Virus record (IMG/VR): IMGVR_UViG_2974529611_000001
Coordinates: 3,486 to 67,485 of that record
Strand: one strand, 5' to 3'
Length of the DNA stretch: 64,000 nt
From: a virus
Lineage: Duplodnaviria; Caudoviricetes
Positions 1,359 to 54,473 of this stretch are shown piece after piece. The position numbers were made by a program, and so were the translations under genes. The stretch's first letter is position 1, and every line of letters starts with the position of its first letter. The notes under the pieces were generated by a model. It did not search any database. It was not told the origin of the DNA and saw only the letters and a program-made list of their open reading frames with translations.

Positions 1359-2975
1359 ATGGCCAACGTCTGGTATATCGGAGACGCCCAGGAGCGCACC
1401 GTCACCTTTAGCGGATCCACGTTCTCCTGGAATATCTGGAATGGGTGGAGCATTCCGGAGTCCGCATTCAACGCTGGCCAGTTGGCCGAGCTGGATGCAG
1501 ACCCGGGTTTCTTATTGGGGCAAACTGGCCAACGGGTAAATCCCCCGTGGACCCCAGATGGGGTAGTTGGGCGCGATGCGGCCATCCTCGCCAAAATGCT
1601 TGATATTTACAATGAGATTCCTGGGCGCCTGAGTGAAGCCTCGATGAAGGCAGCTTTCCCTCGGGTGATCAAACGTCCAGATTGGATGCCGTGGGATTAC
1701 GGATTTACGATTCTGTTTGATGGCACCAGGTTCTTCACGAATTACGACGTGTCGGTGAAGAAGAATCGCACCACTCAGATCGTGTATGTCCATACCGTTC
1801 AGGGTGACAACACGACCGGCAACGGAACTCCGCTCAAGCCCTACAGGTCAATCAATCGTGGTGTAACAGCGGTGTCAGACGGTGGCACCGTCATTGTCAT
1901 GAATGGAGACCCGATCTATCGGGCGACCAACATCGACACAACTGCGGATTGCACCAAGTCGGTCAACATCATCTTCGCTGATCCTGAGACTAAGGTGGTC
2001 GCAGCTGACGCGCTCACGTACACGCTTTCATCAGGGCAAACCAACGTCTATGAGGCAGCTCGTACCAACGTCCTCAAGGTGATCGACACCTCGGTCGACC
2101 CGGAAGGCGTTGAGTACGCGAGGGTCGCCGACATCGCCACATGCGAGGCGACTGATGGAAGTTGGTTCCAGGCCGCAAATGGTACCGGACCCCTGTACGT
2201 GAATCCGATTGGCAGCGGCGCACCGGCTGCCGGAAAGGTGTTCGCCCTTCTTCAGGACGCCTGTCTGCGATTCGCGACCACAGGACGTTCATCGGCGATG
2301 AATGTGTACATCGAGGGTGGCCGTTTCTTCGGTGGAACGATCGGAGTCCTCAATGCCTACTCGATCAACGCCCACAAGCTGACGATCACCACGAAGAACT
2401 CCAAGTTCTTGCATGGAGGATATGGAAACGTGGGGGTCTCATCGCCGTCGGGACTCTACAATGGCCTGGTAATCCTAGGGAATGTGGAGTACTGGGGCCA
2501 AAAGACCGTAGTTGCCCATTCTGGACTCGACGGATTTAACTACCACGCCCAGGGTGGATACATCCCCAAGTTCGTGGAAATTGACTGCGAGGCTCACGAC
2601 TGCGGAACCGGACCAATCTCGGTCGCCGCAGGGGTTGGCAATACCCAAAATGGTAGCACAGCTCATGACGGAATCGTTGGCGTTCGGGTAGGCGGAAAGT
2701 ATTGGAAGACTTTTGGTGCTCCGCTTGCCGACGTCCAAGAAGGAACGGTCACGCTGAACTTCTCGTGTGAATCAGGGTACTCAACCGACCCAGGTGGAAA
2801 CAATGCTTCATTCTGTGCGCAGCAAGCTGGTGCAATCATGGGCGTATTTGGATGTGTGGCATGGGGGACAACGTGGCATCTGTATGCCGTAACGGGTGCC
2901 ACGATCTACTACGATTCGTTGACCAAGTTCTCAACCGTCCAAGGCGGGGGAACAAGGCAGTTGGTTGAGCTGTAG
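1359..2975 (+). CDS. Fibre/tailspike-like protein with putative right-handed beta-helix (pectin-lyase-like) domain
   Basis: 538-aa ORF with an AGTAGG RBS. The motif VYVHTVQGDNTTGNGTPLKPYRSI is typical of beta-helix N-caps, followed by a Gly/Asn-rich beta-repeat region. Confidence 0.6.
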   Translation: MANVWYIGDAQERTVTFSGSTFSWNIWNGWSIPESAFNAGQLAELDADPGFLLGQTGQRVNPPWTPDGVVGRDAAILAKMLDIYNEIPGRLSEASMKAAFPRVIKRPDWMPWDYGFTILFDGTRFFTNYDVSVKKNRTTQIVYVHTVQGDNTTGNGTPLKPYRSINRGVTAVSDGGTVIVMNGDPIYRATNIDTTADCTKSVNIIFADPETKVVAADALTYTLSSGQTNVYEAARTNVLKVIDTSVDPEGVEYARVADIATCEATDGSWFQAANGTGPLYVNPIGSGAPAAGKVFALLQDACLRFATTGRSSAMNVYIEGGRFFGGTIGVLNAYSINAHKLTITTKNSKFLHGGYGNVGVSSPSGLYNGLVILGNVEYWGQKTVVAHSGLDGFNYHAQGGYIPKFVEIDCEAHDCGTGPISVAAGVGNTQNGSTAHDGIVGVRVGGKYWKTFGAPLADVQEGTVTLNFSCESGYSTDPGGNNASFCAQQAGAIMGVFGCVAWGTTWHLYAVTGATIYYDSLTKFSTVQGGGTRQLVEL

Positions 2976-3007
2976 GCCACATGCTGAATGAGTCTGACGC
3001 GGCACGC

Positions 3008-3013
3008 TATAAT
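3008..3013 (+). promoter_or_regulatory. Consensus -10 hexamer (TATAAT) upstream of the basic-protein cluster
   Basis: Perfect TATAAT in the 2976-3107 intergenic gap; the -35 region is weak. Confidence 0.5.
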
Positions 3014-3107
3014 CGAGGCAGACGACCGGCCCGCCCCATGAAAGGCGTGGCATCGAGTCGGGTAGCCCGGAGGGCGATCACAGGCCGACGCAAGCGAAAG
3101 TGATCTG

Positions 3108-3410
3108 ATGCCAGACTACGGTTCGACACCCAAGGTGCCGAAGCGTCGTCAACGGCCCAAGATGCGACAGCAGCGTCGAGACTACAAACGGAAGCGTGAC
3201 CGTGAAGGTCGCTTCGCTTCCACAGATCGTTCAGTGTCGTCTCGCCGGTATATCAGGGAACTTCGCCGAAAGTCCAAGAACCCCCGCCGTACCCGTAATA
3301 CGTCCAAGAACATCTACAACGAACGTGGCGGACTCAAGTCCGCAAGTGCCAAAAGAGCGGGGAAGCGCCGAGGTACTGCTAGGAATAATTCCAAGCGAAC
3401 TCGGAGGTAG
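3108..3410 (+). CDS. Highly basic (Arg/Lys-rich) protein 1
   Basis: 100 aa, roughly 35-40% K+R, with an RDREGRFA motif. First gene after the TATAAT promoter. Confidence 0.75.
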   Translation: MPDYGSTPKVPKRRQRPKMRQQRRDYKRKRDREGRFASTDRSVSSRRYIRELRRKSKNPRRTRNTSKNIYNERGGLKSASAKRAGKRRGTARNNSKRTRR

Positions 3411-3412
3411 AA

Positions 3413-4066
3413 GTGGCCAAGCGGAAGCGCAAGGCGGTACGGAAGACGCTGAAGTCTGCATCTGCCCGTGGCCGGATTCCTCGCGACAAGAATGGCAAGT
3501 TCGTCAATGCCTCGGGACGTAACAAGTCCAAGGGTGCCAACGTTCAGAACCTGAAGCGCGGTGGGGGAGGCGGTGGTCGCCGTAAGGCCAGCTCTTCGAG
3601 CCGGACTGCATCCAACCGACCAGCGGCCCGCAAGACTGCATCCAATAAGCCGCCGATCACCGGGCAGCCGAAGAAGTCCAGCAGCAAGGCTGGCAAGCCG
3701 CAGACCGGCAAGACGGTCAACAAGCGCAAGCCAATGTCCAGGAAGAAGCGGGCAGCTATTGGCGCAGCAATTGGAGCTGGCACATATATTGCAGCGACCG
3801 GCGCATTCCATGCGGCGGGGAAGATCGGTGAGCACCGGGCCAGGAAGGCCCAGGCCGAGTACTACCGTCGCGAAGACCAGAGAGTCGGGGGATACGCAGC
3901 GGCTCGGAACTACGCCAAGATGGCCTACAATGGACACTCGGTGAAGGCAGGACAGTGGTATCGCCCGACTGAATCGAAGTACACCAAGCCCAAGACGAAG
4001 CGATCTTCCCAGCGGGCGTTGGGCTCGGGTACGCGGGCGTTGGCGGGCACGAGAGCGAGGCGATAA
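3413..4066 (+). CDS. Highly basic protein 2 with a Gly/Ala hydrophobic segment
   Basis: GGAGG RBS and GTG start. RDKNGKFV motif and AAIGAAIGAGTYIAATGAF segment. TAATG-coupled to the next gene. Confidence 0.8.
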   Translation: MAKRKRKAVRKTLKSASARGRIPRDKNGKFVNASGRNKSKGANVQNLKRGGGGGGRRKASSSSRTASNRPAARKTASNKPPITGQPKKSSSKAGKPQTGKTVNKRKPMSRKKRAAIGAAIGAGTYIAATGAFHAAGKIGEHRARKAQAEYYRREDQRVGGYAAARNYAKMAYNGHSVKAGQWYRPTESKYTKPKTKRSSQRALGSGTRALAGTRARR

Positions 4067-6314: not shown

Positions 6315-6355
6315 TCCAGCAGGTATACTAGGTGAGAACCTAGTAGGAGGATACC

Positions 6356-6805
6356 ATGGAGTACATGCCTGCTGATCTGGCCAAGACGCTATCTGCGATG
6401 GCCAGGGGCACCCACAACGAGATTTGTGGATTCATCTTGGATGACTGGACGTTAATCTCTGTCCGGAATGTCGCCCAGTTGCCAACCATAAGCTTTGAGA
6501 TGAGCATGAATGCCATCCTCGGAGCTGTGGAGATGGCCGCAGCATCTGGCCGGGAGATTCTGGGCACCTACCACAGCCACCCTGGCGGATCAACCGAGCC
6601 CAGCGAAACCGACCTTCATGGCTGGCCTCGATTCATTGATGGATCATACGCTCGGTACTGGGTTGTAACTGGCGATACCGTTCGGGAGTTCGAGCGCACC
6701 GGGGAAGGATCAGAGATTGGCTTCCAGCTCATTCATTCTATCGGAATCGGGGTCGTCGTCAAAAGACCCGAAGAAGGTATGGATCAATCGGTACCTGAGG
6801 ATTGA
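6356..6805 (+). CDS. JAB/MPN (JAMM) Zn-metalloprotease
   Basis: Complete JAMM signature: E22 ... HSH-PGGSTEP-S-ET-D (ExnHxHx7Sx2D). AGGAGG RBS. Confidence 0.85.
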   Translation: MEYMPADLAKTLSAMARGTHNEICGFILDDWTLISVRNVAQLPTISFEMSMNAILGAVEMAAASGREILGTYHSHPGGSTEPSETDLHGWPRFIDGSYARYWVVTGDTVREFERTGEGSEIGFQLIHSIGIGVVVKRPEEGMDQSVPED

Positions 6806-7664
6806 TCGTGAGTTCAACAAGGAACTCAATGAAGCACTTGTTCAAGCTGCCGAAGATGTTGAGCGGGAAGTTGCTGAGCTCTTCGCCAAAGCTGGCGTGG
6901 GAGCCACTGTCCGCCGCGCTCAGCTCACAGGAGCTTCAGGAGTTATCACAAAAGTCCTCCATGCTCTATTTCTTTCCTCGGGAACACTCATTGGAACGTA
7001 CCGAGCGAAAGCCGCGACCGAATCCGTCAAGGCCGCCAATGTCTGGGATGATGAGGTACTCAAAGCCCTCATACCGGACCCGGCGAAGCGAAAGGTCTTC
7101 AAGTCCAGTCTTGAGCTTACCGCATCACGCAATGTGGAGGCCATGGTCAAGCGAGTCACCGGTGACACGGTCACTCTGAGCCGGAGGGTATACCGAAGTG
7201 AAGCGTTGGCTCGTGGGCAGATTGACCGTGTCATCAACTCCAGCTTGGCTAAAGGCGACAGTGCTGCTGAGCTCGCACGCAAGGCGAGAGCCTTTATCCA
7301 CCCTTCTACTCCTGGTGGAGCTTCTTACGCTGCTAAGCGCCTTGGTCGTACTGAGATCAATAATGCGTTTCATGCCCAGGCAATCGCCACCAATCAGAAC
7401 CGACCTTGGGTTAGCCAAATCAGGTGGCACCTCAGCGGTAGCCACACACCACGACCTGGTGATCCATGTGAACGGTACCACCGACAGGGAGTATTCCCTG
7501 TGGGATCAACTCCAAAGAAGCCACACCCACAGTGCCTCTGTTACATCACTCCAGAAGTACCGCCAATCGAGGTGATCCTCCAGCAGTACGAGTCGGGGAT
7601 ATATGACCAATGGTTGGCAGATAACAAGCTCGAACGTGACAGTAGGGTATTATCACCTGCGTAA
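6717..7664 (+). CDS. MuF-like minor head morphogenesis protein (start uncertain)
   Basis: AKRLGRTEINNAFH, WHLSGSH...PC and PHPQCLCY are typical MuF C-terminal motifs. Lies just before the scaffold. Confidence 0.8.
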   Translation: MASSSFILSESGSSSKDPKKVWINRYLRIDREFNKELNEALVQAAEDVEREVAELFAKAGVGATVRRAQLTGASGVITKVLHALFLSSGTLIGTYRAKAATESVKAANVWDDEVLKALIPDPAKRKVFKSSLELTASRNVEAMVKRVTGDTVTLSRRVYRSEALARGQIDRVINSSLAKGDSAAELARKARAFIHPSTPGGASYAAKRLGRTEINNAFHAQAIATNQNRPWVSQIRWHLSGSHTPRPGDPCERYHRQGVFPVGSTPKKPHPQCLCYITPEVPPIEVILQQYESGIYDQWLADNKLERDSRVLSPA

Positions 7665-7689
7665 AGGGATCAACGAACCGGAGGTTCAC

Positions 7690-8478
7690 ATGTACGGCTT
7701 GAAGCCACTGAAGGCGCTCTCGGAAGCCACTGCCATTCCATTCTGGTCGCTCAGCATCTACGGTGCTGAGGGCGAAGATGGTGGCGACGGTGGCGACAGC
7801 CAGGGCGGCGGCGATGACGACGGCGGCGACGACGATGGTGGTGACGATGAAGGCGGCGACGACAAGACCGACTTCTCGGCCATCAGCGACCCCAAGGAGC
7901 GCCGCATCGCCGAGCTGAGCGACGAGGCTGCCAAGGCCCGCATCGCCAAGCGGGAGATGAAGAAGCAGCACACCGCTGAGCTCAATGATCTCAACAAGCG
8001 GATCAAGGACCTGGAGAAGGCTGCCAAGGGCGGCGAGGGTGGCCCCGAGATCACCGACGAGATTCGGGCCGAGATCGAGCAGCCCTACGTTGAGAAGATC
8101 GGCCATCTGGAGAAGTTCGCCTACCGGCAGGCCATCGAGAATGCCATCCTCAAGGAGTCCGTGGCGGACGGGGCCGCTCGCCGGGTTTGGTTCGACACCT
8201 CCGACGTGATCGCCAATCTCGACATGGATGCAATCGACTTCGACCTCGAATCAGGTAGTATCGACGGTATCGCGGACGAGCTGAACCGCATCGCCTCAGC
8301 CAAGCCCCATCTCGTGAAGGAGAAGGGCAAGGTCAAGAAGAAGGAAGATGATGGCCAGCAGAGCCGTAGGGGAGCTTCTGGGAGACAACCTGGCGGTGCC
8401 GGGGCCCAAATCCATGGTATGGATAAGTCACGAAGAGATGAACTGGGCGCCAAGTACCCGGTTCTGAATCGCCGCTAG
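7690..8478 (+). CDS. Capsid scaffolding protein
   Basis: GGAGG RBS before ATG 7690. Acidic Gly/Asp linker and coiled coil, directly upstream of the capsid genes. Confidence 0.75.
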   Translation: MYGLKPLKALSEATAIPFWSLSIYGAEGEDGGDGGDSQGGGDDDGGDDDGGDDEGGDDKTDFSAISDPKERRIAELSDEAAKARIAKREMKKQHTAELNDLNKRIKDLEKAAKGGEGGPEITDEIRAEIEQPYVEKIGHLEKFAYRQAIENAILKESVADGAARRVWFDTSDVIANLDMDAIDFDLESGSIDGIADELNRIASAKPHLVKEKGKVKKKEDDGQQSRRGASGRQPGGAGAQIHGMDKSRRDELGAKYPVLNRR

Positions 8479-44378: not shown

Positions 44379-45185
44379 GTGAAAGTATGCGTGATTGGCT
44401 GTGGGCCTACGGGACTCTTGGCATCAGCCGCCGCAATGGAGATGGGACACAAGGTTGAAATCTGGTCCCAGCCGAAGAAGTCAGAACTCTTCGGTGCCCA
44501 GTACCTGCACTGCCAACCGCCGCTCGTCCAGGGCGTTCCTGAGTTCACCGTGAACTACAAGACCTTGGGTGGGGCTGAGGCATATCGGAAGAAGGTCTAT
44601 GGCCCCAGCTGGGATGGAACGGTCAGCCCCGAGGACTTCCAAGAGCCGCATCAGGGTTGGGACATTCGCTTCACCTACGAGATGCTTTGGTCGCTGTTCG
44701 AGGGCAGCATCCATCCGTTCACCATCTCGAACTTCGATGAGGCGAACATGCTGATCGACTTTGACCAGTACGATGTGATCTTCAGCTCGGTGCCTCGCAC
44801 CGTGTGGAAGATGGGCAATGAGGTATTCCTCAGCCAGGACGTGTTGGCAGTCGGCGACACCACCTGGCGGAAGCTGGACGTACCGATCCCACCAAACACC
44901 GTGATCTGCAACGGGCTCAACCGCCCCTCTTGGTACCGAGGTTCACACATCGACGGGTTCAAGACGCTCGAATGGCCGCTGCGTGACAAGTTCGATCGAG
45001 CAATCAAGCCACCCATCCCTGGCGTCGTCAAGGTCAAGAAGCCTTTGGCCTACCGACCTGATCCGAACAAGCCGAACCCGGCTGACCAGAGGTTCCATCA
45101 CATCGGAAGGTATGGAGAGTGGAAGAAGGGCGTTCTGACCAGCGACGCTATCGCCATCGTGAGGGAAGTGTTGGGTGATGGGTAA
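44379..45185 (+). CDS. FAD-dependent oxidoreductase (UDP-galactopyranose mutase-like architecture)
   Basis: VCVIGCGPTGL Rossmann motif, FGAQYLH, YDVIFSSVP and HIGRYGEW. Confidence 0.75.
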   Translation: MKVCVIGCGPTGLLASAAAMEMGHKVEIWSQPKKSELFGAQYLHCQPPLVQGVPEFTVNYKTLGGAEAYRKKVYGPSWDGTVSPEDFQEPHQGWDIRFTYEMLWSLFEGSIHPFTISNFDEANMLIDFDQYDVIFSSVPRTVWKMGNEVFLSQDVLAVGDTTWRKLDVPIPPNTVICNGLNRPSWYRGSHIDGFKTLEWPLRDKFDRAIKPPIPGVVKVKKPLAYRPDPNKPNPADQRFHHIGRYGEWKKGVLTSDAIAIVREVLGDG

Positions 45186-45876
45186 CAATGGATCTCAGGC
45201 GTTCGACAACGGCAAGCCGATCATCGCGCTCGACATTGATGGAACCCTCGGCGACTATCATGGACATTTCCTTCGGTTCGCCGAAGCCTGGTATGGACGG
45301 CCTATGCCTGATCCCAGTGAGATTAATCCTGGGCTCCCGCTGCACAAGTTCATGCAGACGAGCAAGGCCACATATCGGCAATGCAAACTTGCATACCGAC
45401 AAGGTGGTCTCAAAAGAAGTATGCCTGCCTACCCAGGAGCTGCTGGACTTACTCGATATATCCGCCAGAGTCTCGGTGCAGAGGTTTGGATCTGTACTAC
45501 CAGACCTTATCTACGTCTGGACAACATCGACCCAGACACCCGTCACTGGCTCCGTCGGAACAATATCCAATATGATGGCGTCGTGTGGGGGCCGCACAAA
45601 TACCGTGACCTGGCCAAGAGGGTTGGAACGGATCGCATTGTGGCGGTACTGGATGATGAGCTTGGCCTTGTCAAGCAAGCTAGAGAGGTTGGGGTTGAAA
45701 ACGTCTACCTCAGAGACCAACCGTACAATATTTGGTCGGATGCTCTCGGTAGGCCCAATCGCCGAATCATGAAGAAAGATGGGGTCATCCGGATTGACGG
45801 AAACTATGACCGGGGATTGATTCAGAAGTACCTCAGATGGGACGTGGAAGGATGGCACCAAGCAAGAAGCTTGTAG
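45175..45876 (+). CDS. HAD-superfamily phosphatase (5'(3')-deoxyribonucleotidase-like)
   Basis: IALDIDGT, ICTTRP and VLDD motifs. Confidence 0.8.
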   Translation: MMGNNGSQAFDNGKPIIALDIDGTLGDYHGHFLRFAEAWYGRPMPDPSEINPGLPLHKFMQTSKATYRQCKLAYRQGGLKRSMPAYPGAAGLTRYIRQSLGAEVWICTTRPYLRLDNIDPDTRHWLRRNNIQYDGVVWGPHKYRDLAKRVGTDRIVAVLDDELGLVKQAREVGVENVYLRDQPYNIWSDALGRPNRRIMKKDGVIRIDGNYDRGLIQKYLRWDVEGWHQARSL

Positions 45877-46064
45877 ATGAGCTGGCCAACAGCAGCAGTG
45901 GAAAGACACACTGGGCCAAGGACGACGAAGGATCGCCACTCTGTGGCACTTCACTGTGGGGCAGCCTATCAGGAACCATTGATGACCCCGACTACATCAA
46001 CTGCGTGACCTGCAAGACCTGCCTACGAATGATCAAGAAGCGAAAGGAAGAACAACATGGCTGA
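45852..46064 (+). CDS. Small Cys/His protein
   Basis: KTHW...PLCG...VTCKTC. Confidence 0.6.
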   Translation: MAPSKKLVDELANSSSGKTHWAKDDEGSPLCGTSLWGSLSGTIDDPDYINCVTCKTCLRMIKKRKEEQHG

Positions 46065-46515
46065 CGCAATTGTGCTCACCGTCGATTACTACCCTGATCG
46101 GCTGAGCAATCAGGGGCAAGAGATCATGTACGAGATCGCCCCGAAGGTTCTGGAGAACTTCGCTCGGAAGAACGCGGACTACGGCGACACCAGTTTCGAC
46201 CTGGGCATCGCTGGGCAGTACGCCGAACTGTGGCGGAAGGTCGGCAAGCTCAAGGGGCCGATGTGGGAAGGCAAGAGCCTTGAGTTCGAGCAGATGGACG
46301 AGATTCTGCAAGACCTGATCGGTCACTGCCTGCTGTCCCTGTACTTCCTGCGCACCCAGGAGGTAGAGTGCATCACGCCGGTCGCTGCCAAAGTGCTCAA
46401 TTCAGCAATGGGCAATCAACTTCGACACTTACCTGAGGAAGAATGTGGCACCTACTGCAACATCGACGAATCAGGGCGCTGCGAGAATCCTGATCACTAC
46501 GAATTGAAGGCATGA
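46057..46515 (+). CDS. Nmad1/DUF1599-like all-alpha nucleotide pyrophosphohydrolase-fold protein
   Basis: FARKNADYG...ELWRKVGKL...EILQDLIGHCLL pattern. Confidence 0.65.
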   Translation: MADAIVLTVDYYPDRLSNQGQEIMYEIAPKVLENFARKNADYGDTSFDLGIAGQYAELWRKVGKLKGPMWEGKSLEFEQMDEILQDLIGHCLLSLYFLRTQEVECITPVAAKVLNSAMGNQLRHLPEEECGTYCNIDESGRCENPDHYELKA

Positions 46516-46516
46516 G

Positions 46517-47245
46517 ATGAGTGACGAGTTCGGTTGCGACACCGGCGTCCATGGACGCAAAGAGAACAACGACAAGGGCTGGGTCGCCAAGTACGATGCC
46601 CGTGAGAACCCCCAGATGGATGAGCCGCTGAACTTCGCACTGTTTGGCCTAGCTCGCCAGCAGGAGTTCCTGGACATGCAGTGGCGCGAAGTCGACTGGG
46701 ACCTTCCCGTTCTGGACCTCGGACCGGGAAACAAGATCATCCCCGGTGCGGTCCGGTGCGAGTACCCTGAGTACAACTTTGAGTCACCAGACTTCCTGCC
46801 CACGGCTCAGACGTCTACATCATTCAAGTTCCTCAGCTCGGATGACGTTCTGGATGGGAAGTTCGGGTACACTGACGCCTACTCCATGTACCGATGCACG
46901 TTGCCCTACCCGGACAACAGCGTGGGTGGCATCTTCGCGGTCAACATCCTCGAACACCTCTGGGACCCGAGGCCGATCATGGAGGAGTGCGCGAGGGTCT
47001 TGGCACCGGGTTGCCCGCTGAATATCGTTGTGCCGCATGCACATTCGGTGATCTACTCGCAGGACCTGGACCACAAGAAGGAGTTCGTTCTGGACTCCTT
47101 CAAGAACTGGCTCAACAACCAGTACTGGGGTCCGGACCGGACCGCGTTGAGGCTGCGGGTCGGCACCCTGTTCAAGTTTTCCATCAAGGAGGGCAACGAG
47201 AACATCCAGTGCCAGCTCGTGAAGAAGTTCGATTCGGAGGAGTGA
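46517..47245 (+). CDS. Class I SAM-dependent methyltransferase (type 11-like)
   Basis: VLDLGPG, LPYPDNSV, ILEHL, ECARVLAPG and QDLDH motifs. Confidence 0.8.
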   Translation: MSDEFGCDTGVHGRKENNDKGWVAKYDARENPQMDEPLNFALFGLARQQEFLDMQWREVDWDLPVLDLGPGNKIIPGAVRCEYPEYNFESPDFLPTAQTSTSFKFLSSDDVLDGKFGYTDAYSMYRCTLPYPDNSVGGIFAVNILEHLWDPRPIMEECARVLAPGCPLNIVVPHAHSVIYSQDLDHKKEFVLDSFKNWLNNQYWGPDRTALRLRVGTLFKFSIKEGNENIQCQLVKKFDSEE

Positions 47246-47706
47246 TGGCTGGCAAGAACGTAGTACGGATGCTCAAAGGCACCGTCAACCACATCTGGGC
47301 GATGGTGAACTTTGAGGGTCCGTACGAGGACGATGGTGATCGCAAAACTGACATCGTTGATCTGGGGAGGCAGTCGCCTTCTTCCGCCAACGGGATCAGT
47401 TCGCAGATCCATCCGGACTCCTTCACTGACTGGCGGAAGGGATCGGCAATTCAGTGGCACAAGCCTCTGATTGACATTGACCTTCCGATTGCCGCCGTAC
47501 CATCCACGACCGAGGGCCACTTCCACCTGTTCATCGACAAGGAGCTGACCTGGGAAGAGTACAAGACCCTGCTGAAGGTTCTCCGTGACCTGAAGATCAT
47601 TGAGGACGGGTACTACCAAGCGTCACTGCGACGCGGGGCCACATGGGTGAGGGCACCGTGGTGCAAGAAGCCACCCGAAGAGATCATAGAAGAGGAGCCA
47701 TCCTGA
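47245..47706 (+). CDS. Hypothetical protein with AEP-like DID / STxxGHxH motifs
   Basis: GGAGGAG RBS and TGATG coupling; LIDIDL...PSTTEGHFHLFI. Confidence 0.65.
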   Translation: MAGKNVVRMLKGTVNHIWAMVNFEGPYEDDGDRKTDIVDLGRQSPSSANGISSQIHPDSFTDWRKGSAIQWHKPLIDIDLPIAAVPSTTEGHFHLFIDKELTWEEYKTLLKVLRDLKIIEDGYYQASLRRGATWVRAPWCKKPPEEIIEEEPS

Positions 47707-48398
47707 TGAGCTACCTGGTACTAGGAGGTAAGGACGGCGGTGTGGGAATGGCCGTCGTTGACCTCCTCAAGGAGATGGGCCATACGGTCTTTGCCACCGA
47801 TGCCAAGGTTGATGTGCGATCGGCTGCCATCATTGATGAGGTTGCGATCTCGTTGACCAAGATGGAGCCGAAGCTCGAAGGCGTGGTCTACTGCGCCGGA
47901 GTCAACCACCTGAGCTGGTTGGGGCAGATGGAGCGGAGCGGCCTGCAAGATGCAGCCAACATGTTCGCGATCAACTCGCTTGGCTTCCTATCGGTAATGG
48001 ACTCGTTCGTTCGGCACTACGACCGACCTCTGAGTATCGTTGCCATCAGCTCTGACGCTGCGGAGCGCCCGTTGAGGACTTCCTCGGCGTACTGCGCAAG
48101 CAAGGCCGCGCTCAACATGCTCGTGAGAGTCGCTGCTCGGGAGCTGGGGCCGAAAGGGTGGCGCGTGAACGCGGTCGCACCGGGCATGCTGGATGGGACC
48201 GGAATGTCCAGCCACATGGACACCCAGATTCCCTTGGTTCGCGGGTGGTCCTTGAAGGAGGCGATGGATTACGAGAAGTCCCAGGAGGTCGTACCCGGTC
48301 GCATTCCGCCACGGGAGGTTGCCGAGGTGGTCTTTGACCTCCTGACCGGACCGAAGCACATGAATGGTGAGATTGTCACCCTGAATGGAGGCAGGTAG
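47706..48398 (+). CDS. Short-chain dehydrogenase/reductase (SDR)
   Basis: LVLGGKDGGVG, CAGVN, ISSDAA, YCASK (YxxxK) and VNAVAPG motifs. Confidence 0.85.
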   Translation: MSYLVLGGKDGGVGMAVVDLLKEMGHTVFATDAKVDVRSAAIIDEVAISLTKMEPKLEGVVYCAGVNHLSWLGQMERSGLQDAANMFAINSLGFLSVMDSFVRHYDRPLSIVAISSDAAERPLRTSSAYCASKAALNMLVRVAARELGPKGWRVNAVAPGMLDGTGMSSHMDTQIPLVRGWSLKEAMDYEKSQEVVPGRIPPREVAEVVFDLLTGPKHMNGEIVTLNGGR

Positions 48399-48401
48399 GT
48401 C

Positions 48402-48716
48402 ATGCCTCCCGACTGGCTTATTTGGCTCCTGGTTGCACTGGGCGTCTTTCTGCTGGTCATGATGCTCGCTAGTTTCATTGTCAATGGTATAGACCGAAGC
48501 ATTGACCCCCGGCTGGACGAGAAGATGATCAAGGCCAAGAATGATGCCTTGATGGAGAGTGAGGAGAAAGCATACGCCGAGAAACTTATGGAGGGGTGGC
48601 TCAGCAATCACTGGGAGCCACTTGATGAATGGGTTCCGACACCAGATCAGAAATGGGAAGACAATGCCGATGAGCTACGAAGAGGCCAAAGAGGCCCTTC
48701 ACGAGATGTACGATGA
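48402..48716 (+). CDS. Membrane protein (1 TM)
   Basis: WLIWLLVALGVFLLVMMLASFIV segment. Confidence 0.6.
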   Translation: MPPDWLIWLLVALGVFLLVMMLASFIVNGIDRSIDPRLDEKMIKAKNDALMESEEKAYAEKLMEGWLSNHWEPLDEWVPTPDQKWEDNADELRRGQRGPSRDVR

Positions 48717-48774
48717 CGAGTGGATCGAGCAGAATGGCGAGGAAGAGATGATCGAGGAGCTGATGAAGCTGTGA
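48670..48774 (+). CDS. Tiny acidic protein
   Basis: MSYEEAKEALHEMYDDEWIEQNGEEEMIEELMKL; GTGA coupling downstream. Confidence 0.45.
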   Translation: MSYEEAKEALHEMYDDEWIEQNGEEEMIEELMKL

Positions 48775-48860
48775 GCTGGGAGACATACACCCAAGTACTC
48801 TCGATCATGTTATGGTTCTACATGCTCACCGCCGGACTAGTCAGGGAGATCAAGAAGTAA
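48771..48860 (+). CDS. 29-aa hydrophobic peptide coupled to dnaE
   Basis: GAGGAG RBS and GTG start; its TAA overlaps the dnaE ATG (TAATG). Confidence 0.5.
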   Translation: MSWETYTQVLSIMLWFYMLTAGLVREIKK

Positions 48861-51800
48861 TGCGCTGGGTCAGTCTTCATACGCATTCCACCTTCTCGTA
48901 TGGTGACGGCTACGGGCCGGTGAAAGACCACGTTGCCCGAGTTGAAGAGCTTGGCATGACTGCCATCTGCCTCACCGAGCACGGCCATAACTCTTCTCAC
49001 GTGCAGCTTGAGAAGGCATGCAAGGGCACCAGCATCAAGCCCATGTATGGATGCGAGCTGTACGTTGTCCACGACAACTGGGAAGAGCAGCGACGCAAGT
49101 ACCACCAGATCGCGATTGCCATCAACGAGAAGGGTTACCAGAACCTCAACCGGATCGTCTCAATCGCGAACTCGCCGGAATATCAGTACGACCGTTTCCC
49201 CACCATCCCCAGGCACATCCTGTTTGAGTACTCAGAGGGTCTGGTTGTTACCAGTGGCTGTGCCGACTCGCTGCTGAGCTGCACCCTCCTTGGCGGAAAG
49301 AACATGGGGCCCAAGAGACTGGAATACAATGAAGAGCAATACCGAGAGACTGTCGCACTTGCGGCAGAGTACCAAGAGGTATTCGGACCGCGTTACTTTC
49401 TGGAAGTGCAACGTTTCCCGAGACTGGACCGTACAAGGGTGCTCAATCCGGCCTTCGAGCGGATTGGTGCTGAACTTGGGATTGAGCTCGTTGCCACGGC
49501 GGACGTCCATTACCCTCACCCTGGGGACAACAAGATGCAGCGCATACTCCACGCTGCGAATCGTGGTGGTGGGAAGACGATTGCCCAAGCTGACGCTGAG
49601 TGGGAATACGACATTCTCCTCACTTATCCTGAGTCAGATTCGGAAATCTACCACGACCTTATTGCCACCGGACTCACCCCGAAGGCAGCGAAGAGATCCA
49701 TTCTGAACACTGCGGCCATCGCGAAGCGATGCACCGTAGAGCTTCCCAAGAACGAACCGATCAAGTGGCCCTATCCTGGCAGCGGTCTCCGTGGCGAGGA
49801 TATTGTGGCCGACGTGGAGAAGGAGGGCAACAATGATCCGCAGACTTATTCGAGCATTGAGGAATACACTTGGGCGCGTCTCCGCAAGGGTTGGGCGTTC
49901 CGCATCCAAAGCAATATCCATATGCGGAAGAACAAAGCGCAGTATACTGAGCGTGTCAAGTACGAGATGGAGCGCATCATCCCTCGTGGATTCTGCGACT
50001 ACTTCGGCATGCTCAGCTACCTGGTCACCTGGGCCAAGGACAACAAGATTCCTGTTGGACCTGCTCGCGGAAGTGCTGCTGCTAGCCTGGTTTGTTACCT
50101 GCTCCGCATCACCGAGGTCGACCCACTACAGTTCCCGACGATGATGTTCGAGAGGTTCATCGACCCCAAGCGATTGGACCTCCCAGACGTCGACTTGGAC
50201 TTCGCCGACGACCGACGCGATGAGGTCCGCCAGGAGGCCATTCGGGTCTTCGGAGCTGACCGTGTGGGCAACATCGGTAACTTCACCAGGTACAAGGGCA
50301 AGAACTCGATCACTGACGTGGCGAAGGTCTACGGAATACCCAAGTTCGATACTCAGGTCGTCAAAGACCTGATCATTGAAAGGTCAGGCGGTGACTCTCG
50401 ACAGAACGACACGCTCATGGACACCTTCGAGATGTTCCCTAAGGCACGAGCAGTACTGGACAAGCATCCGGAATTGGAGCTTGCCTCGAAGCTTGAGGGG
50501 AACTACCGGGGCGCAGGGGTTCATGCAGCAGGACTCGTCATATCCAACGCTTCCATCCCGGACACCTGTGCCCTCCACACGCAAGAGTCAGGCGGTCGTG
50601 AGATTACCGCTGTCCCCTACGACAAGAAGGACGCAGAATATCTGGGCATGCTGAAGGCTGACTTCCTTGGCCTGAAGACGATGGGCGAGATCGGGCTCAT
50701 GCTGAACATCATCGGCATGGACCTGGAAGACCTTTACCGCATCCCCCTGGATGACGAGGAGGTGATGGACGCCTTCCAGAGGAACGATGTTCAGGGCATC
50801 TTCCAGTTCGAGGGTCGAGCCACCCGAGTCACCTGTGACCGAGTCAAGCCGGACAACTTCATGGAACTGGCGGATATTAACGCACTGTCCCGACCTGGAC
50901 CGTTGTTCTCTGGCATGACTGATCATTATATCAAGGTCAAGTGGGGCGACATGGAGATTGAGAAGCTCCATCCCATCGTCGATGAGTACACGTCGTTCAC
51001 CAAAGGTCAGATCGTCTATCAGGAGCAGGTTCTTGGAATCATTAAAGACCTGGGTGGATTCCCAGTTCAGCGAGTTGGCGACATTCGGAAGATCATCAGC
51101 CAGAAACTTGGCGAGGCGAGCTTCAACGAGATGTACGAGGAGTTTGAGTCTGGGGCCAAGCGACTTCATAATGTGGAACCTGCCCTCGCTAAGCGAATCT
51201 GGAGCTTCATGGTCACTTCGGCCACCTACAGTTTCAATATCGCTCACTGTGTCTCCTACAGCATGCTCGCTTTCTGGCAGATGTGGCTCAAGATCCATGA
51301 TCCTGTCGCTTTCTACTACGCCAAGCTAGAGAAGACGCCGAACGACAAGAACAACCAGGACAAAATCCGCAAGTACATGAAAGACGCTGTGCGACACGGG
51401 GTTTCAGTTGCCGCACCGCACCTCAACAAGAGCACGAAGTCTTGGGCGTACGACCATTACGTCCCGGCTTCAAAGACGAAGCCAATCACATGGAAGGAGG
51501 GTGATCCGCTGGTCGGCGCTGTCCATGCTGGATTTACCCAGATCAAGGGTATCGGAGACAGCTATGCTGACAATATTCTGGAGTTGCGTGATCGTCTCGG
51601 TGGCTTTGACAGCTGGGAGGATCTACTTGGCGCGAAGGGGATCGGACCAGGACGACTAGAGAAGATCATGGCCTTCGTAGAGAAGGATGATCCCTTTGAC
51701 GTCCGACTGGCCGAGCACATTCTCACCGAGTACCGACGCCGCATCAACTTGGGCATCGACGGATGGGACGAGGTGCTTGAGCCGGACATGACCTCTGACG

Positions 51801-52201
51801 AGGTACCCAAGGACTTCTTCGGAATGTTCACATGGATGGGCATGGTGAAGAAGAAGGAGTTCAAGGACCTGATGGAGGACGAGCGAGCACGATCTGGTCA
51901 GTCGACCGAAGAGATCATGGCCCGACTGAAAGACCCGCACCTCACCAAGAGCTGCACCCTGCACTGTTACGATGATGGTGACGAGGAGATTTACGCTCGC
52001 ATCAGCCGATGGGACTACGAAGCATTGGAGACGCTACTCGAAGAGATCGAACCCAACAAAGACGTAATCGTGATCACTGGCAAGCGCAAGCGGATGTTTG
52101 GTATCTCCGTAGGAGTCAAGAACATCCAGGTGATCGACCCGACCGATGACATCCCTGGCATTCTGGAGAATGCCCGAAAGAAAGCAGCTGGTATACAATG
52201 A
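48860..52201 (+). CDS. dnaE: DNA polymerase III alpha subunit (DnaE-like, C family) with PHP domain
   Basis: SLHTHS, TEHG and ATADVHY (PHP); GPARGSAAASL; PDVDLD catalytic aspartates; GVHAAG; LKADFLGL; FQFE. Confidence 0.95.
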   Translation: MRWVSLHTHSTFSYGDGYGPVKDHVARVEELGMTAICLTEHGHNSSHVQLEKACKGTSIKPMYGCELYVVHDNWEEQRRKYHQIAIAINEKGYQNLNRIVSIANSPEYQYDRFPTIPRHILFEYSEGLVVTSGCADSLLSCTLLGGKNMGPKRLEYNEEQYRETVALAAEYQEVFGPRYFLEVQRFPRLDRTRVLNPAFERIGAELGIELVATADVHYPHPGDNKMQRILHAANRGGGKTIAQADAEWEYDILLTYPESDSEIYHDLIATGLTPKAAKRSILNTAAIAKRCTVELPKNEPIKWPYPGSGLRGEDIVADVEKEGNNDPQTYSSIEEYTWARLRKGWAFRIQSNIHMRKNKAQYTERVKYEMERIIPRGFCDYFGMLSYLVTWAKDNKIPVGPARGSAAASLVCYLLRITEVDPLQFPTMMFERFIDPKRLDLPDVDLDFADDRRDEVRQEAIRVFGADRVGNIGNFTRYKGKNSITDVAKVYGIPKFDTQVVKDLIIERSGGDSRQNDTLMDTFEMFPKARAVLDKHPELELASKLEGNYRGAGVHAAGLVISNASIPDTCALHTQESGGREITAVPYDKKDAEYLGMLKADFLGLKTMGEIGLMLNIIGMDLEDLYRIPLDDEEVMDAFQRNDVQGIFQFEGRATRVTCDRVKPDNFMELADINALSRPGPLFSGMTDHYIKVKWGDMEIEKLHPIVDEYTSFTKGQIVYQEQVLGIIKDLGGFPVQRVGDIRKIISQKLGEASFNEMYEEFESGAKRLHNVEPALAKRIWSFMVTSATYSFNIAHCVSYSMLAFWQMWLKIHDPVAFYYAKLEKTPNDKNNQDKIRKYMKDAVRHGVSVAAPHLNKSTKSWAYDHYVPASKTKPITWKEGDPLVGAVHAGFTQIKGIGDSYADNILELRDRLGGFDSWEDLLGAKGIGPGRLEKIMAFVEKDDPFDVRLAEHILTEYRRRINLGIDGWDEVLEPDMTSDEVPKDFFGMFTWMGMVKKKEFKDLMEDERARSGQSTEEIMARLKDPHLTKSCTLHCYDDGDEEIYARISRWDYEALETLLEEIEPNKDVIVITGKRKRMFGISVGVKNIQVIDPTDDIPGILENARKKAAGIQ

Positions 52202-52830
52202 CGCTCAACCATCGCCAGGCCGTTCGCGGCACCGCAGAGTTCAACGACCGTGAGCTCAACTTCCTGGATGATCGCTACCAGGACAATACCTTGATCTCCG
52301 CCATCTTCGAGTTCATGAAGGTTGGCAAGCAGCTCAAGGACGACCGGGGCAAGTACATTCGATTCGGCGACGACCCCAAGGCACCCCACCGCAAGCGTCG
52401 TCGCTCCTGGTTGGCAAGTGCAAATGACGGCGAGGTTGGTGAGTTCCTGGACGCCGACTTCCAGAATGATCTGATCGAGTACATCGACGGGGCCATCGAC
52501 GTGGCCTACATCGCCCTTGGCGGACTCATCGAAGCCAGTGAGGGAAGTGAGATCGTGGCCCAGGCTCTCCTCAAGGAGGTGCTGCGATCCAACGAGACCA
52601 AGCTGGTCGACTGCGAGGTTCGGGACGATGGCAAGGTGGTGAAGGGGCCGTACTACGAGCCGCCCAGGATCGAAGCCATCCTCACCTACTTCGCCGTGCG
52701 TATCCCTGACCGGGGCGCGTCAGGGTCCGTCGTCGCTATCCCCGCTGCGACGGGGCCGAACCTGACGGCAGTGCCGGACCCCGAACCTACCGAAGTCGGC
52801 GTCAACTTTCTCGGAGAGGACAACAACTGA
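52198..52830 (+). CDS. MazG-like / PRA-PH-like NTP pyrophosphohydrolase
   Basis: E.GEFL...IDGAIDVAYIALG...EVLRSNETK...DGKVVKGPYYEPP. Confidence 0.75.
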   Translation: MTLNHRQAVRGTAEFNDRELNFLDDRYQDNTLISAIFEFMKVGKQLKDDRGKYIRFGDDPKAPHRKRRRSWLASANDGEVGEFLDADFQNDLIEYIDGAIDVAYIALGGLIEASEGSEIVAQALLKEVLRSNETKLVDCEVRDDGKVVKGPYYEPPRIEAILTYFAVRIPDRGASGSVVAIPAATGPNLTAVPDPEPTEVGVNFLGEDNN

Positions 52831-53138
52831 TGGCTGAGCTGAACCCCGAGCAGATTCAGACCCTGCTCGGCTTCATGGACCGCATGGCGACCGGCCTTGA
52901 GAAGATGGTGGTCGCAACGAAGAAGACCAACGAGTTGCTGTTCAAGACCCTGAGCACCATGGAGGCCAACGGGGAGAACGGCAGCGACCTCGTGGAGCTG
53001 TTGGCATCGTGGCCGATCATCATCCCCAGCACCGACCACAATGATCCCGATGGGATCACCATCGCACCCGTCGCCCAGATCATCGAGATGATGGCCGAGG
53101 ATGAAGAGGAGGATGAGGATGGACCCCAAGAAGGCTGA
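52830..53138 (+). CDS. Hypothetical acidic protein
   Basis: GGAGAGG RBS, TGATG coupling. Confidence 0.65.
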   Translation: MAELNPEQIQTLLGFMDRMATGLEKMVVATKKTNELLFKTLSTMEANGENGSDLVELLASWPIIIPSTDHNDPDGITIAPVAQIIEMMAEDEEEDEDGPQEG

Positions 53139-53379
53139 CAACGGGCCTCGTCTGGGGCAGATTGGCAGCTCAGAGTTCCGAACTCTGGACAAGATCATCC
53201 TAGACACCGGGGTCAGCAGCGTCATTGACAAGCTGACTGCTCCACCAGAGACCGTGCGGCAGCACCTGGACCGGATCGGCGTTGGCTTCAAGGTCCCGAT
53301 GGTCAATGGCCGTCTCGTAATCGAAATTGATGTGGCGGAACTGGAAGCCGCCGAGAACCCCAAGGAGGGTCAGAAATGA
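53119..53379 (+). CDS. Hypothetical protein
   Basis: GAGG RBS, ATGA coupling to the thyX-like gene. Confidence 0.6.
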   Translation: MDPKKADNGPRLGQIGSSEFRTLDKIILDTGVSSVIDKLTAPPETVRQHLDRIGVGFKVPMVNGRLVIEIDVAELEAAENPKEGQK

Positions 53380-54473
53380 GCAGCAAGGAAGTTCGCAAGT
53401 GGGTGGACCCATTCATGTTTGAAGCGGAGGAGATCAATGAAGATACAGGTCCCGAGGTCTACCTCCTGGCCGGTAATCCTGATCCACTGGGGAGCATTGC
53501 GGCTGCCGCGAAAGCATACATGGGTGAGTTTGTGGGTTCGCTGTCCGAAGTCACTGATGCGGAACGGCGCCACTATCTCACCGAGATCCAGAAGACTGCC
53601 TTGGCGATGCCCCTGGAAGCGGTACAGTTCCATTTTCGTATCAAGGGTGTCACTCGGGGATTCACCCACCAGATGGTACGTCAACGTACGGCTGCATACA
53701 GCCAGGAGTCCACACGATTTGCCGTCAAGTCTGGAGTTCCAGTGGGCCGACCGCCCTCACTCGACGGAACTCTGAGCGAACAAGAATGGTGGGAAGCCGA
53801 AGGACCTATCGTGCCAAGCAACCATATTTCCAAGGAGGAGTACGTGGAACGCTATGCCACCAAGGAGCAGCGTTGGCGGTTCAAGTGGGACGAGATAAAC
53901 GCCCAGATCGCAGCGTTCTACAACGGCGTTGTGGCTGATGGGATGCCTGCTGAGGATGCTCGGGGAATCCTGCCGACGAACCTTCTGACTCAGCTGAACT
54001 ACATCACGAACCTTCGGAACCTCCAGGTGGAGGGCGGTAAGCGACTCTGCACCCAGGCGCAGTTCGAGTGGCGGATTGTGTGGGCGAAGATGGTCGAGGC
54101 AATCCGGGAGTATGGATCACGGCAGAGCTACCTGAAGCCTGACCCAAATGGACCGGACCATCCCCCGCTGCTCCGACCTTCGGCCTGGCAGTTCGAGGAG
54201 CTGGCCAAGATTTTTAAGCCGGTCTGCTACCTGGAAGGGTCCTGCCCGTTCAACGCCAGCTTCGACCGTAAGTGCTCCATCCGGAGTCGAGTCGAGCAGA
54301 ACGCCGCAGCCAACCGACCTTCGACCGAGTGGGCCAAGCCCCACTACGTGTCCAACGGTGATTGCACCGACGAGGACGAGATGAGGCAAGGGGTCTATCA
54401 CAAGGGATGGGACCTCGGCATCGAGCCCATCCACCCGGCTGAGTGGCTGCTGGACCCGAAGGCGGCGCGATAA
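53376..54473 (+). CDS. thyX: ThyX-like flavin-dependent thymidylate synthase, variant motif RQR-x7-S-x-R
   Basis: GVTRGFTHQMVRQRTAAYSQESTRF and EDARGILP...TNLRNL; 365 aa. Confidence 0.8.
   Translation: MSSKEVRKWVDPFMFEAEEINEDTGPEVYLLAGNPDPLGSIAAAAKAYMGEFVGSLSEVTDAERRHYLTEIQKTALAMPLEAVQFHFRIKGVTRGFTHQMVRQRTAAYSQESTRFAVKSGVPVGRPPSLDGTLSEQEWWEAEGPIVPSNHISKEEYVERYATKEQRWRFKWDEINAQIAAFYNGVVADGMPAEDARGILPTNLLTQLNYITNLRNLQVEGGKRLCTQAQFEWRIVWAKMVEAIREYGSRQSYLKPDPNGPDHPPLLRPSAWQFEELAKIFKPVCYLEGSCPFNASFDRKCSIRSRVEQNAAANRPSTEWAKPHYVSNGDCTDEDEMRQGVYHKGWDLGIEPIHPAEWLLDPKAAR

Follow-up and report, generated by a model that had tools for sequence, protein, structure and literature searches.

Phages that carry 5-hydroxymethyluracil (hmU) or 5-hydroxymethylcytosine (hmC) combine a thymidylate synthase-family enzyme, a pyrophosphatase acting on deoxynucleoside triphosphates (dNTPs), a phosphatase acting on deoxynucleoside monophosphates (dNMPs), and a polymerase of their own. 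Among thymidylate synthases, ThyX is a drug target and, to our knowledge, the only flavin-based enzyme. 5-Hydroxy-dCMP is a product of ThyA homologues, and one DNA glycosylation cluster includes a full-length phage UDP-galactopyranose mutase (UGM) (PMC13326640); thymidine hypermodification also uses flavin enzymes (PMC8989533). Here we analyzed a gene string that includes a ThyX-like protein, at positions 44379-54473 of a 64,000-nucleotide stretch of phage DNA (the window), which spans bases 3486-67485 of a 67,485-base virus record and is almost the whole genome. A first-pass annotation had proposed that this string encodes an uncharacterised nucleotide or DNA hypermodification pathway; its observation is partly confirmed and its interpretation partly supported by the analysis below. 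The string lies inside the phage replication operon and is a real, conserved, uncharacterised unit, in which a flavoprotein (FADox), a HAD phosphatase, and a small helical protein (P3) accompany a DnaE-like polymerase and the ThyX-like protein. We tentatively favor, with a little less than even confidence, the view that this unit serves the thymidylate and dNTP pools, as a conserved module in which a phage-type ThyX is accompanied by an obligate flavoprotein and an Nmad1-like partner.

FADox was found in 120 actinophage records and P3 in 116, and their distributions over six host genera run in parallel (FADox/P3 records: Gordonia 40/40, Mycobacterium 32/32, Microbacterium 36/32, Streptomyces 9/9, Arthrobacter 2/2, and Nocardia 1/1). 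In the 46 IMG/VR loci that have at least 9.5 kb of sequence downstream of FADox, profile searches of the downstream 10 kb found DnaE in all 46, ThyX and P3 in 42 each, the HAD phosphatase in 40, a short-chain dehydrogenase/reductase (SDR) in 29, a methyltransferase in nine, a MazG-like protein in six, and the small protein P4 in two. The same gene order, Cas4 - RecA-like - FADox - (HAD) - P3 - (methyltransferase) - (SDR) - DnaE - ... - ThyX - RuvC, is present in seven cultured lineages and five metagenome contigs, and is seen in the cluster D mycobacteriophage Adjutor, in Leopard, the Microbacterium EF phages, Terapin, Yara, and Wollypog. The genes for FADox, ThyX, and P3 adjoin one another in the EF phages. 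The SDR gene is placed before or after DnaE depending on the lineage, always inside the block, and in a metagenome locus (L014) it adjoins ThyX. Co-occurrence of the block genes is far above chance: the core consists of FADox, P3, ThyX, and DnaE, usually with the HAD phosphatase, the SDR is frequent, and the methyltransferase, MazG, P4, and the small open reading frames (ORFs) are lineage-specific. The hypermodification proposal had been staked on genes that co-occur as a unit, and the unit is conserved.

The source is a cluster DV Gordonia phage (Lambovirus), with 96% identity to phages Lila22 and Gibbin, and the 10-kb stretch is 93-98% identical to that of 27 cluster DV Gordonia rubripertincta phages (Lila22, Gibbin, and Lambo among them). 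Every gene of the block is on the + strand, neighboring genes overlap or abut (1-40 nt), the sole larger gap (95 nt) lies before DnaE, and a promoter and terminator scan of the block found no excess of such sites over shuffled sequence. Because of this arrangement, "one tightly coupled operon," as the string had been called, is a fair description. The features of the block are as follows.

44379-45185, + strand: FADox (P0001, 268 aa), a minimal two-domain flavoprotein with a UGM-like fold, of the phage-only family phrog_8720
45175-45876, + strand: HAD phosphatase (P0002, 233 aa) with a DIDGT motif, a candidate NT5C-like 5'-deoxyribonucleotidase
45837-46064, + strand: 75-aa ORF of no family, found in cluster DV only
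46057-46515, + strand: P3 (P0003, 152 aa), a helical-bundle protein, Nmad1/DUF1599-like by language-model features only
46517-47245, + strand: class I S-adenosylmethionine (SAM) methyltransferase of the Methyltransf_11 type, by Pfam match
47242-47706, + strand: P4 (P0004, 154 aa), with no family match and a widespread C-terminal 75-aa domain
47706-48398, + strand: classical FabG-like SDR with Ser-Tyr-Lys, by family match
48402-48716, + strand: 104-aa ORF, an uncertain gene, 95% conserved in Lila22 but without annotation there
48812-52201, + strand: DnaE-like DNA polymerase III alpha, by domain matches (PHP, NTPase, finger, HhH)
52198-52830, + strand: MazG-like nucleotide pyrophosphohydrolase, with a marginal Pfam match and a clear PHROG match
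52830-53138, + strand: 102-aa ORF, by ORF call
53101-53379, + strand: ORF of ~90 aa, by ORF call
53376-54473, + strand: long ThyX-like flavin-dependent thymidylate synthase (365 aa), with a Thy1 match, an RQR motif, and a Cys-rich C-terminal part

Nine protein identities had been assigned to this string in the first-pass annotation. Seven of them hold (flavoprotein, HAD phosphatase, methyltransferase, SDR, DnaE, MazG-like protein, and ThyX), the Nmad1-like one is a lead only, and the assignment of P4 as a minimal AEP-like protein is not supported. The block does contain enzymes of nucleotide type, as had been claimed: the NT5C-like phosphatase, the MazG-like protein, ThyX, and, as a lead, the Nmad1-like protein. 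It is uncertain which genes lie between the SDR and DnaE, as Lila22 annotates two much smaller genes in place of the ORF at 48402-48716.

The ThyX-like protein matches the Thy1 domain (PF02511) with 100.8 bits against a gathering score of 24.8. It departs from the ThyX motif RHR-x7-S-x-R, reading RQRTAAYSQESTR, in which Gln replaces His to give RQR for RHR, and the residues aligned to His53 and His59 of the Thermotoga maritima enzyme are Leu and Ala. We take His53 to be the histidine that stacks on folate and NADPH. In alignments with T. maritima ThyX and across ten sequences, the phage protein keeps the equivalents of T. maritima Q75, R78, R80, E86, S88, R90, R147, and R174, which are presumably the residues that contact dUMP and FAD; because these are kept, the ThyX-like protein is likely to bind dUMP. 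The ten-sequence alignment includes ThyX-like proteins of the PB1-like Pseudomonas phage F8, the Escherichia coli Wifcevirus phage ECML-117, the Streptomyces phage Yara, and the mycobacteriophage Leopard, and the His is missing in all ten phage proteins aligned, which read RQR, RTR, or RSR. A tblastn search found this RxR-type subfamily in 478 phage records. The long form, with its insertion and Cys-rich tail, reaches at least 80% query coverage in 107 records, which by genus are largely the FADox-carrying phage groups. The description of this ThyX as non-canonical therefore stands as far as the RQR motif and a score below the TIGR02170 cutoff are concerned; as a sign of chemistry special to this locus it does not, since the RxR signature is common to all ten phage ThyX-like proteins examined and, judged from these alignments, appears to mark a large phage subfamily.

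Two further features of ThyX were seen in these comparisons. The protein is 69% identical to the ThyX of Lila22 (L001:14983-16179), with DnaE, FADox, and the HAD phosphatase 100% identical between the two phages, and the exchanged segment comprises middle and C-terminal parts, at about residues 120-170 and 250-345. The region at 54100-54330 (ThyX residues about 224-312) encodes a set of cysteines (RLC, PVCY, GSCPF, and KCS) that is common to the ThyX-like proteins of F8, ECML-117, Adjutor, and Terapin and is lost in AnnaSerena and Wollypog; from its sequence, this set may be a metal site.

FADox is a new, phage-only flavoprotein family (phrog_8720, function unknown). An AF2 model of it, built on a 34-sequence alignment, had a pLDDT of 94.8, and its top structural match (VIA) was Trypanosoma cruzi UGM (4dsg; Z 13.8, rmsd 4.2, 258 residues aligned), with class A flavin monooxygenases as runners-up (Z about 12, up to 12.3). 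When the model was searched with Foldseek, UGM, D-amino-acid oxidase, and VioD ranked together. By eye, the DVIFSSVP and C-terminal GRYGEWKKG segments of FADox resemble IIYTGP and GRLAEYKYY of E. coli Glf. The FAD oxidoreductase with UGM-like motifs of the first-pass annotation is borne out as a UGM-like flavoprotein. FADox, at 268 aa, is ~100 residues shorter than E. coli Glf (367 aa). In an hhalign comparison of the two, just 31 Rossmann residues align (probability 0.6%), searches of Pfam and NCBIfam gave the Rossmann motif and no match beyond it, and the FADox profile found the Rossmann motif only among PDB sequences. At the level of sequence, the whole protein does not match the UGM family.

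Some relatives of the block carry additional genes of DNA-repair or modification type next to FADox. In L014 these encode a UDG-family and an Asn_synthase-like protein (6352-7822), in L016 a pyrimidine-dimer glycosylase (Pyr_excise; 7311-7856), and in L013 there is a gene with a weak match to TAGT (TET-associated glycosyltransferase; 2892-3770).

The HAD phosphatase carries a DIDGT (DxDxT) motif, matches phrog_415 at 8.5e-22, and scores 22.0 bits against NT5C (PF06941), below the 24.8 cutoff; its orthologue in locus L017, from a metagenomic actinophage, scores 30.7 bits, above the cutoff. These matches are in keeping with the deoxyribonucleotidase-like phosphatase of the first-pass annotation. 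In L017 the HAD phosphatase and P3 are fused in frame (L017:8783-9829), which argues that the two proteins act in one pathway.

P3 has a very strongly conserved 75-residue core, with the invariant residues KNADYGD...GQYAELWRKVGKLK...E..DE...DLIGH, and its model is a helical bundle. It had been called Nmad1/DUF1599-like, and two observations make this a lead: DUF1599 accounts for 28 of the 30 nearest named clusters among its Atlas neighbors (top score 0.95), and the L014 protein that occupies the P3 position matches PF07659 with an E-value of 6.7e-4 (20.4 bits, below the 25-bit cutoff). The family profile itself, PF07659 (Nmad1/DUF1599), had no match up to E 10 in P3 and its homologues, nor any match across the window, the phage genome, or five related phages. 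No other Pfam family matched P3. By hhalign, neither the L014 DUF1599-like protein nor the MazG-like protein of the window showed a significant relation to P3; by eye, P3 and the L014 protein have the pattern K..YG.[ST] ... K..[KR]L in common. Structure searches gave weak MazG-like rows with Foldseek against the PDB (E about 1) and helical-hairpin noise in a VIA-wide search (Z below 8), where the sole near full-length row was 2p06 (Z 6.9). We regard P3 as a reasonable lead for an Nmad1-like protein, not as a demonstrated member of that family. P3 of the window and of Lila22 are 75% identical, and the differences are in the tail.

The remaining proteins of the block were identified as follows. 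The 46517-47245 product scores 31.4 bits against Methyltransf_11 (cutoff 21.2), a small-molecule type, in agreement with the SAM methyltransferase first annotated, and no DNA-methyltransferase motifs were seen in it by eye. The SDR at 47706-48398 has a 96-bit family match, and the matches to PHP, NTPase, finger, and HhH domains agree with the earlier call of DnaE. The MazG-like pyrophosphohydrolase, also called before, is marginal in PRA-PH (21.6 bits against a cutoff of 21.3) and clear in phrog_671 (6e-20). No specific substrate emerged when PDB sequences were searched with the methyltransferase, HAD, SDR, and MazG-like proteins. P4 has no Pfam family match and no similarity by BLASTP to the prim-pol encoded elsewhere in the window (E 0.28), and the AEP-like identity is not supported; within the block, P4 is found in cluster DV only. 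Its C-terminal 75-aa domain (residues 65-145; LIDIDLP...EGHFHLFID...) is a very common, unnamed phage domain, matched in 2617 representative protein clusters at E-values up to 0.001, often at 50-60% identity and in some cases inside proteins of 300-470 aa. No Pfam family covers this domain above cutoff in the 13 proteins that were scanned, nor did ten longer proteins that carry it match any family above cutoff, one of them having a weak, sub-cutoff YppF match.

Sets of genes that look like this block also lie near ThyX in Gram-negative phages. When the FADox model was searched against BFVD, it matched a 280-aa protein of the PB1-like phage PA5 (E 3e-9, TM 0.52). In phage F8, which is also PB1-like, ORF065, located upstream of ThyX, encodes a Rossmann flavoprotein whose motifs include IISTAP and GRFATWRN; the genes after ThyX encode a HAD_PNKP phosphatase, whose C-terminal domain is helical (weak DUF6378 match), and then the DNA polymerase. 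The order in ECML-117 is gp80 (with the same motifs as F8 ORF065), gp79, ThyX, gp77, and a FabG-like SDR, and gp77 is a HAD_PNKP phosphatase whose C-terminal FRERNAVYGDN may be compared with FARKNADYGDT of P3. Fusions of HAD to P3-like or DUF6378-like helical domains are also present in ECML-117 (L012:3819-4691) and F8 (L011:3964-5028). Comparisons by hhalign of the FADox profile with F8 ORF065 and ECML-117 gp80, and of P3 with the C-terminal domains of F8 gp057 and ECML-117 gp77, gave nothing significant beyond short motifs, and the extension of the block to Gram-negative phages is a lead only.

Whether the virion DNA is likely to be modified was approached through the known enzymes and through restriction sites. 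The annotation of Lila22 (96% identical) lists no glycosyltransferase, no kinase for nucleotides or DNA, no aGPT-Pplase/AADT, TET/JBP, DpdA, PurZ, or DNA-acting modifier, and no ribonucleotide reductase, in line with the earlier statement that neither the known hypermodification toolkits nor a glycosyltransferase could be recognised in the block. No hypermodification enzyme was found among the Pfam matches of the block, the ORFs of the window having been scanned in part. Six-base palindromes are strongly avoided in the window: 21 of 45 have an observed/expected ratio below 0.5 and 12 of 45 a ratio below 0.1, and the corresponding figures for non-palindromes are 1.9% and 0.03%. Those below 0.5 include five of seven GC-only palindromes and 16 of 38 that contain A/T, nine of the latter being below 0.1. 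Examples, as observed against expected counts, are CTCGAG (2/27), GCCGGC (0/19), AGGCCT (0/19.5), ATCGAT (1/20), and TTCGAA (0/18). Phages of E. coli with hmC avoid 2.4% of host sites, compared with 55.8% in relatives without hydroxymethylation (PMC6286503). Because avoidance is low in hmC coliphages and strong in the window, the pattern, which extends to sites with T, would argue against restriction-protected DNA and for DNA that is exposed to restriction enzymes, although it is not decisive. CTGCAG is absent from the window, as are GCCGGC, AGGCCT, and TTCGAA (13-20 expected each), and GGTACC is over-represented (33 observed, 21 expected). Phage Adjutor avoids GC-only palindromes (4/8) and is unlike the DV window in A/T-containing ones.

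In the reading that we favor, the stretch would be the nucleotide-metabolism half of the replication operon, an old and conserved block running from Cas4 and the RecA-like gene through the flavoprotein, HAD phosphatase, P3, and the optional methyltransferase and SDR to DnaE, an optional MazG, ThyX, and RuvC. Its most likely job would be to furnish pyrimidine deoxynucleotides to the phage's own polymerase and to condition their pool. The ThyX-like enzyme would bind dUMP and FAD and make dTMP, as its conserved residues suggest, and P3, the HAD phosphatase, and the MazG-like protein would hydrolyse nucleotides (dNTP to dNMP to nucleoside), as family likeness and the HAD::P3 fusion suggest. The UGM-like flavoprotein is, as co-occurrence shows, an obligate partner of the phage-type ThyX and P3. 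One may guess that FADox gives this ThyX reducing equivalents or a one-carbon unit, since the T. maritima His that stacks on folate and NADPH is replaced in the phage enzyme. The methyltransferase and SDR would be lineage-variable accessories, and the virion DNA would be canonical or, failing that, would lack broad protection from restriction. Several observations weigh against this reading. If plain dTMP supply were the purpose, placing a 5'-nucleotidase beside a thymidylate synthase would seem futile; textbook dTMP synthesis has no place for a methyltransferase, an SDR, or a dedicated flavoprotein; the domain that P3 resembles took its name from an association with nucleotide modification; and the ThyX lacks both His53 and His79 and scores 77.4 bits against the NCBIfam equivalog TIGR02170, below its 87.9 cutoff. 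In addition, the enzyme activities are predicted ones, and the palindrome argument is indirect: the control phage SPO1, which has hmU, avoids seven of 39 palindromes, and Adjutor (L002+L020), a cluster D phage with the same block, avoids one of 37 A/T-containing palindromes, a pattern that could be explained by the restriction repertoire of its host or by protection directed at T/A.

The view of the first-pass annotation, that the block makes a non-canonical pyrimidine deoxynucleotide, is in our judgment unlikely. By this route the variant ThyX would add a one-carbon unit to dUMP or dCMP and release a product other than dTMP, for instance one bearing a hydroxymethyl group or a more elaborately tailored one; canonical dNTP and dNMP would be removed by P3, MazG, and the HAD phosphatase; tailoring of the nucleotide would fall to the flavoprotein, methyltransferase, and SDR; and DnaE would incorporate it. 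The enzymes present follow the same logic as those of hmU and hmC phages, conservation of the unit is strong, and there are precedents in thymidylate synthase homologues with new chemistry and in the phage UGM of a DNA glycosylation cluster (PMC13326640); the loss of the two ThyX histidines, the Nmad1-like Atlas features of P3 with the syntenic PF07659-matching protein of L014, and the sparing of A/T-containing palindromes in Adjutor point the same way. Against it stand the strong avoidance of both T-containing and GC-only palindromes in the window, the generic nature of the RxR motif among the phages examined, the lack in the Lila22 annotation of a nucleotide kinase, glycosyltransferase, aGPT-Pplase, or DNA-acting enzyme, and the many core-bearing lineages from which the methyltransferase and SDR are absent. 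SacII, whose site has only C and G, cuts DNA of the PB1-like phage JG024 into fragments near the predicted sizes (PMC3008698), and nothing relevant was found in the literature on DNA modification in cluster D/DV phages or on ThyX-based modification, which for these much-sequenced phages is absence of evidence only. A further proposal, which we find doubtful, is that deoxynucleotides bound for DNA are not the substrates of the flavoprotein, methyltransferase, SDR, and phosphatase, which would instead act on a cofactor, on some other small molecule, or on RNA. The variant ThyX might, for example, depend on a cofactor of flavin or folate type or on a one-carbon donor such as formaldehyde derived from an N-methyl amine. 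The missing folate-stacking His of ThyX, a methyltransferase of small-molecule type, a flavoprotein in the amine-oxidase/UGM/monooxygenase fold group, and an SDR that moves yet stays in the block (next to ThyX in L014, and two genes off, after the HAD gene, in ECML-117) are consistent with such a role; no protein has a specific family match to any cofactor pathway, the methyltransferase is in only 9 of the 46 loci, and the chemistry is pure inference.

A common pathway might also be lacking altogether, the genes being neighbors through shared descent of the replication module. Synteny in these phages extends over the whole replication region (Cas4, RecA-like, DnaE, and RuvC), so that the order could be kept by linkage alone. 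This explanation is nevertheless quite improbable: actinophage genomes are mosaic, yet FADox and P3 are equally distributed at 29-45% identity; the SDR shifts its position and remains in the block; HAD and P3 are fused in one lineage; and, as a lead only, a look-alike cast lies by ThyX in unrelated E. coli and Pseudomonas phages. It is far less probable still that the UGM-like flavoprotein, SDR, and methyltransferase modify virion or host glycans. UGM is the top fold match of the flavoprotein, and SDRs and methyltransferases are common in sugar pathways, but a glycosyltransferase is missing from the Lila22 annotation, the flavoprotein is much shorter than Glf and aligns with it in profile comparison only at the Rossmann motif, and the genes lie in the replication operon, not among the structural genes.

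The block is of interest because a phage-specific ThyX subtype is accompanied by two unstudied proteins, a dedicated flavoprotein from a new family and the small, Nmad1-like P3. If these partners alter the product or the carbon donor of ThyX, the result would be new nucleotide chemistry. If they merely tune dNTP pools, the block would explain a conserved "oxidoreductase / hypothetical protein" set in more than 100 archived, culturable SEA-PHAGES isolates. The boldest form of the proposal, which we think will probably prove wrong, is that the quartet of FADox, P3, HAD phosphatase, and RxR ThyX, joined in some lineages by the methyltransferase and SDR, is a new ThyX-based pathway, which would either give over 100 cultured actinophages (DV, D, EF, and relatives) a non-canonical pyrimidine in their virion DNA or draw on a non-folate one-carbon donor, furnished by the flavoprotein, to make thymidylate. 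In that case the look-alike sets by ThyX in PB1-like Pseudomonas phages and E. coli Wifcevirus, if truly related, would make it a general phage invention.

Compared with described proteins, the phage ThyX shares the Thy1 domain and the dUMP- and FAD-contacting residues of T. maritima ThyX (1kq4) and differs from it in the RQR motif, in Leu and Ala in place of His53 and His59, and in ~115 extra residues, with an insertion and a Cys-rich C-terminal part; its score is below that of the TIGR02170 equivalog. FADox has UGM (Glf; 4dsg, 1i8t) as its best structural match and resembles it in the GxGxxG, ST.P, and C-terminal GR..E(Y/W)K motifs, whereas UGM is a protein of 367-470 aa, the FADox family is phage-only, and monooxygenases score almost as well. 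P3 is a small helical bundle like Nmad1/DUF1599 (PF07659), to which most of its nearest named Atlas clusters belong, and differs in that the family profile does not match it in the window or in five related phages.

Among whole gene sets, the phage clusters for cytosine and thymine hypermodification (RB69, DLP3, and RL38J1; M6, ViI, and PaMx11) likewise place a thymidylate synthase-family enzyme beside flavin, sugar-type, or tailoring enzymes (PMC13326640, PMC8989533). Those clusters differ in having either glycosyltransferases or aGPT-Pplase/AADT, together with DNA or nucleotide kinases and ThyA-fold enzymes, none of which is annotated here. The phages with hmU or U in their DNA (SPO1/SP8, with a dUMP hydroxymethylase, dTTPase, and dTMP phosphatase, and PBS2) resemble the block in their combination of a thymidylate synthase-type enzyme with pyrophosphatase-like and phosphatase-like proteins and a polymerase. 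In the block, however, the thymidylate synthase-type enzyme has the ThyX fold rather than the ThyA fold, no dNMP kinase or dCMP deaminase is annotated, and the window avoids restriction sites more strongly than SPO1 does.

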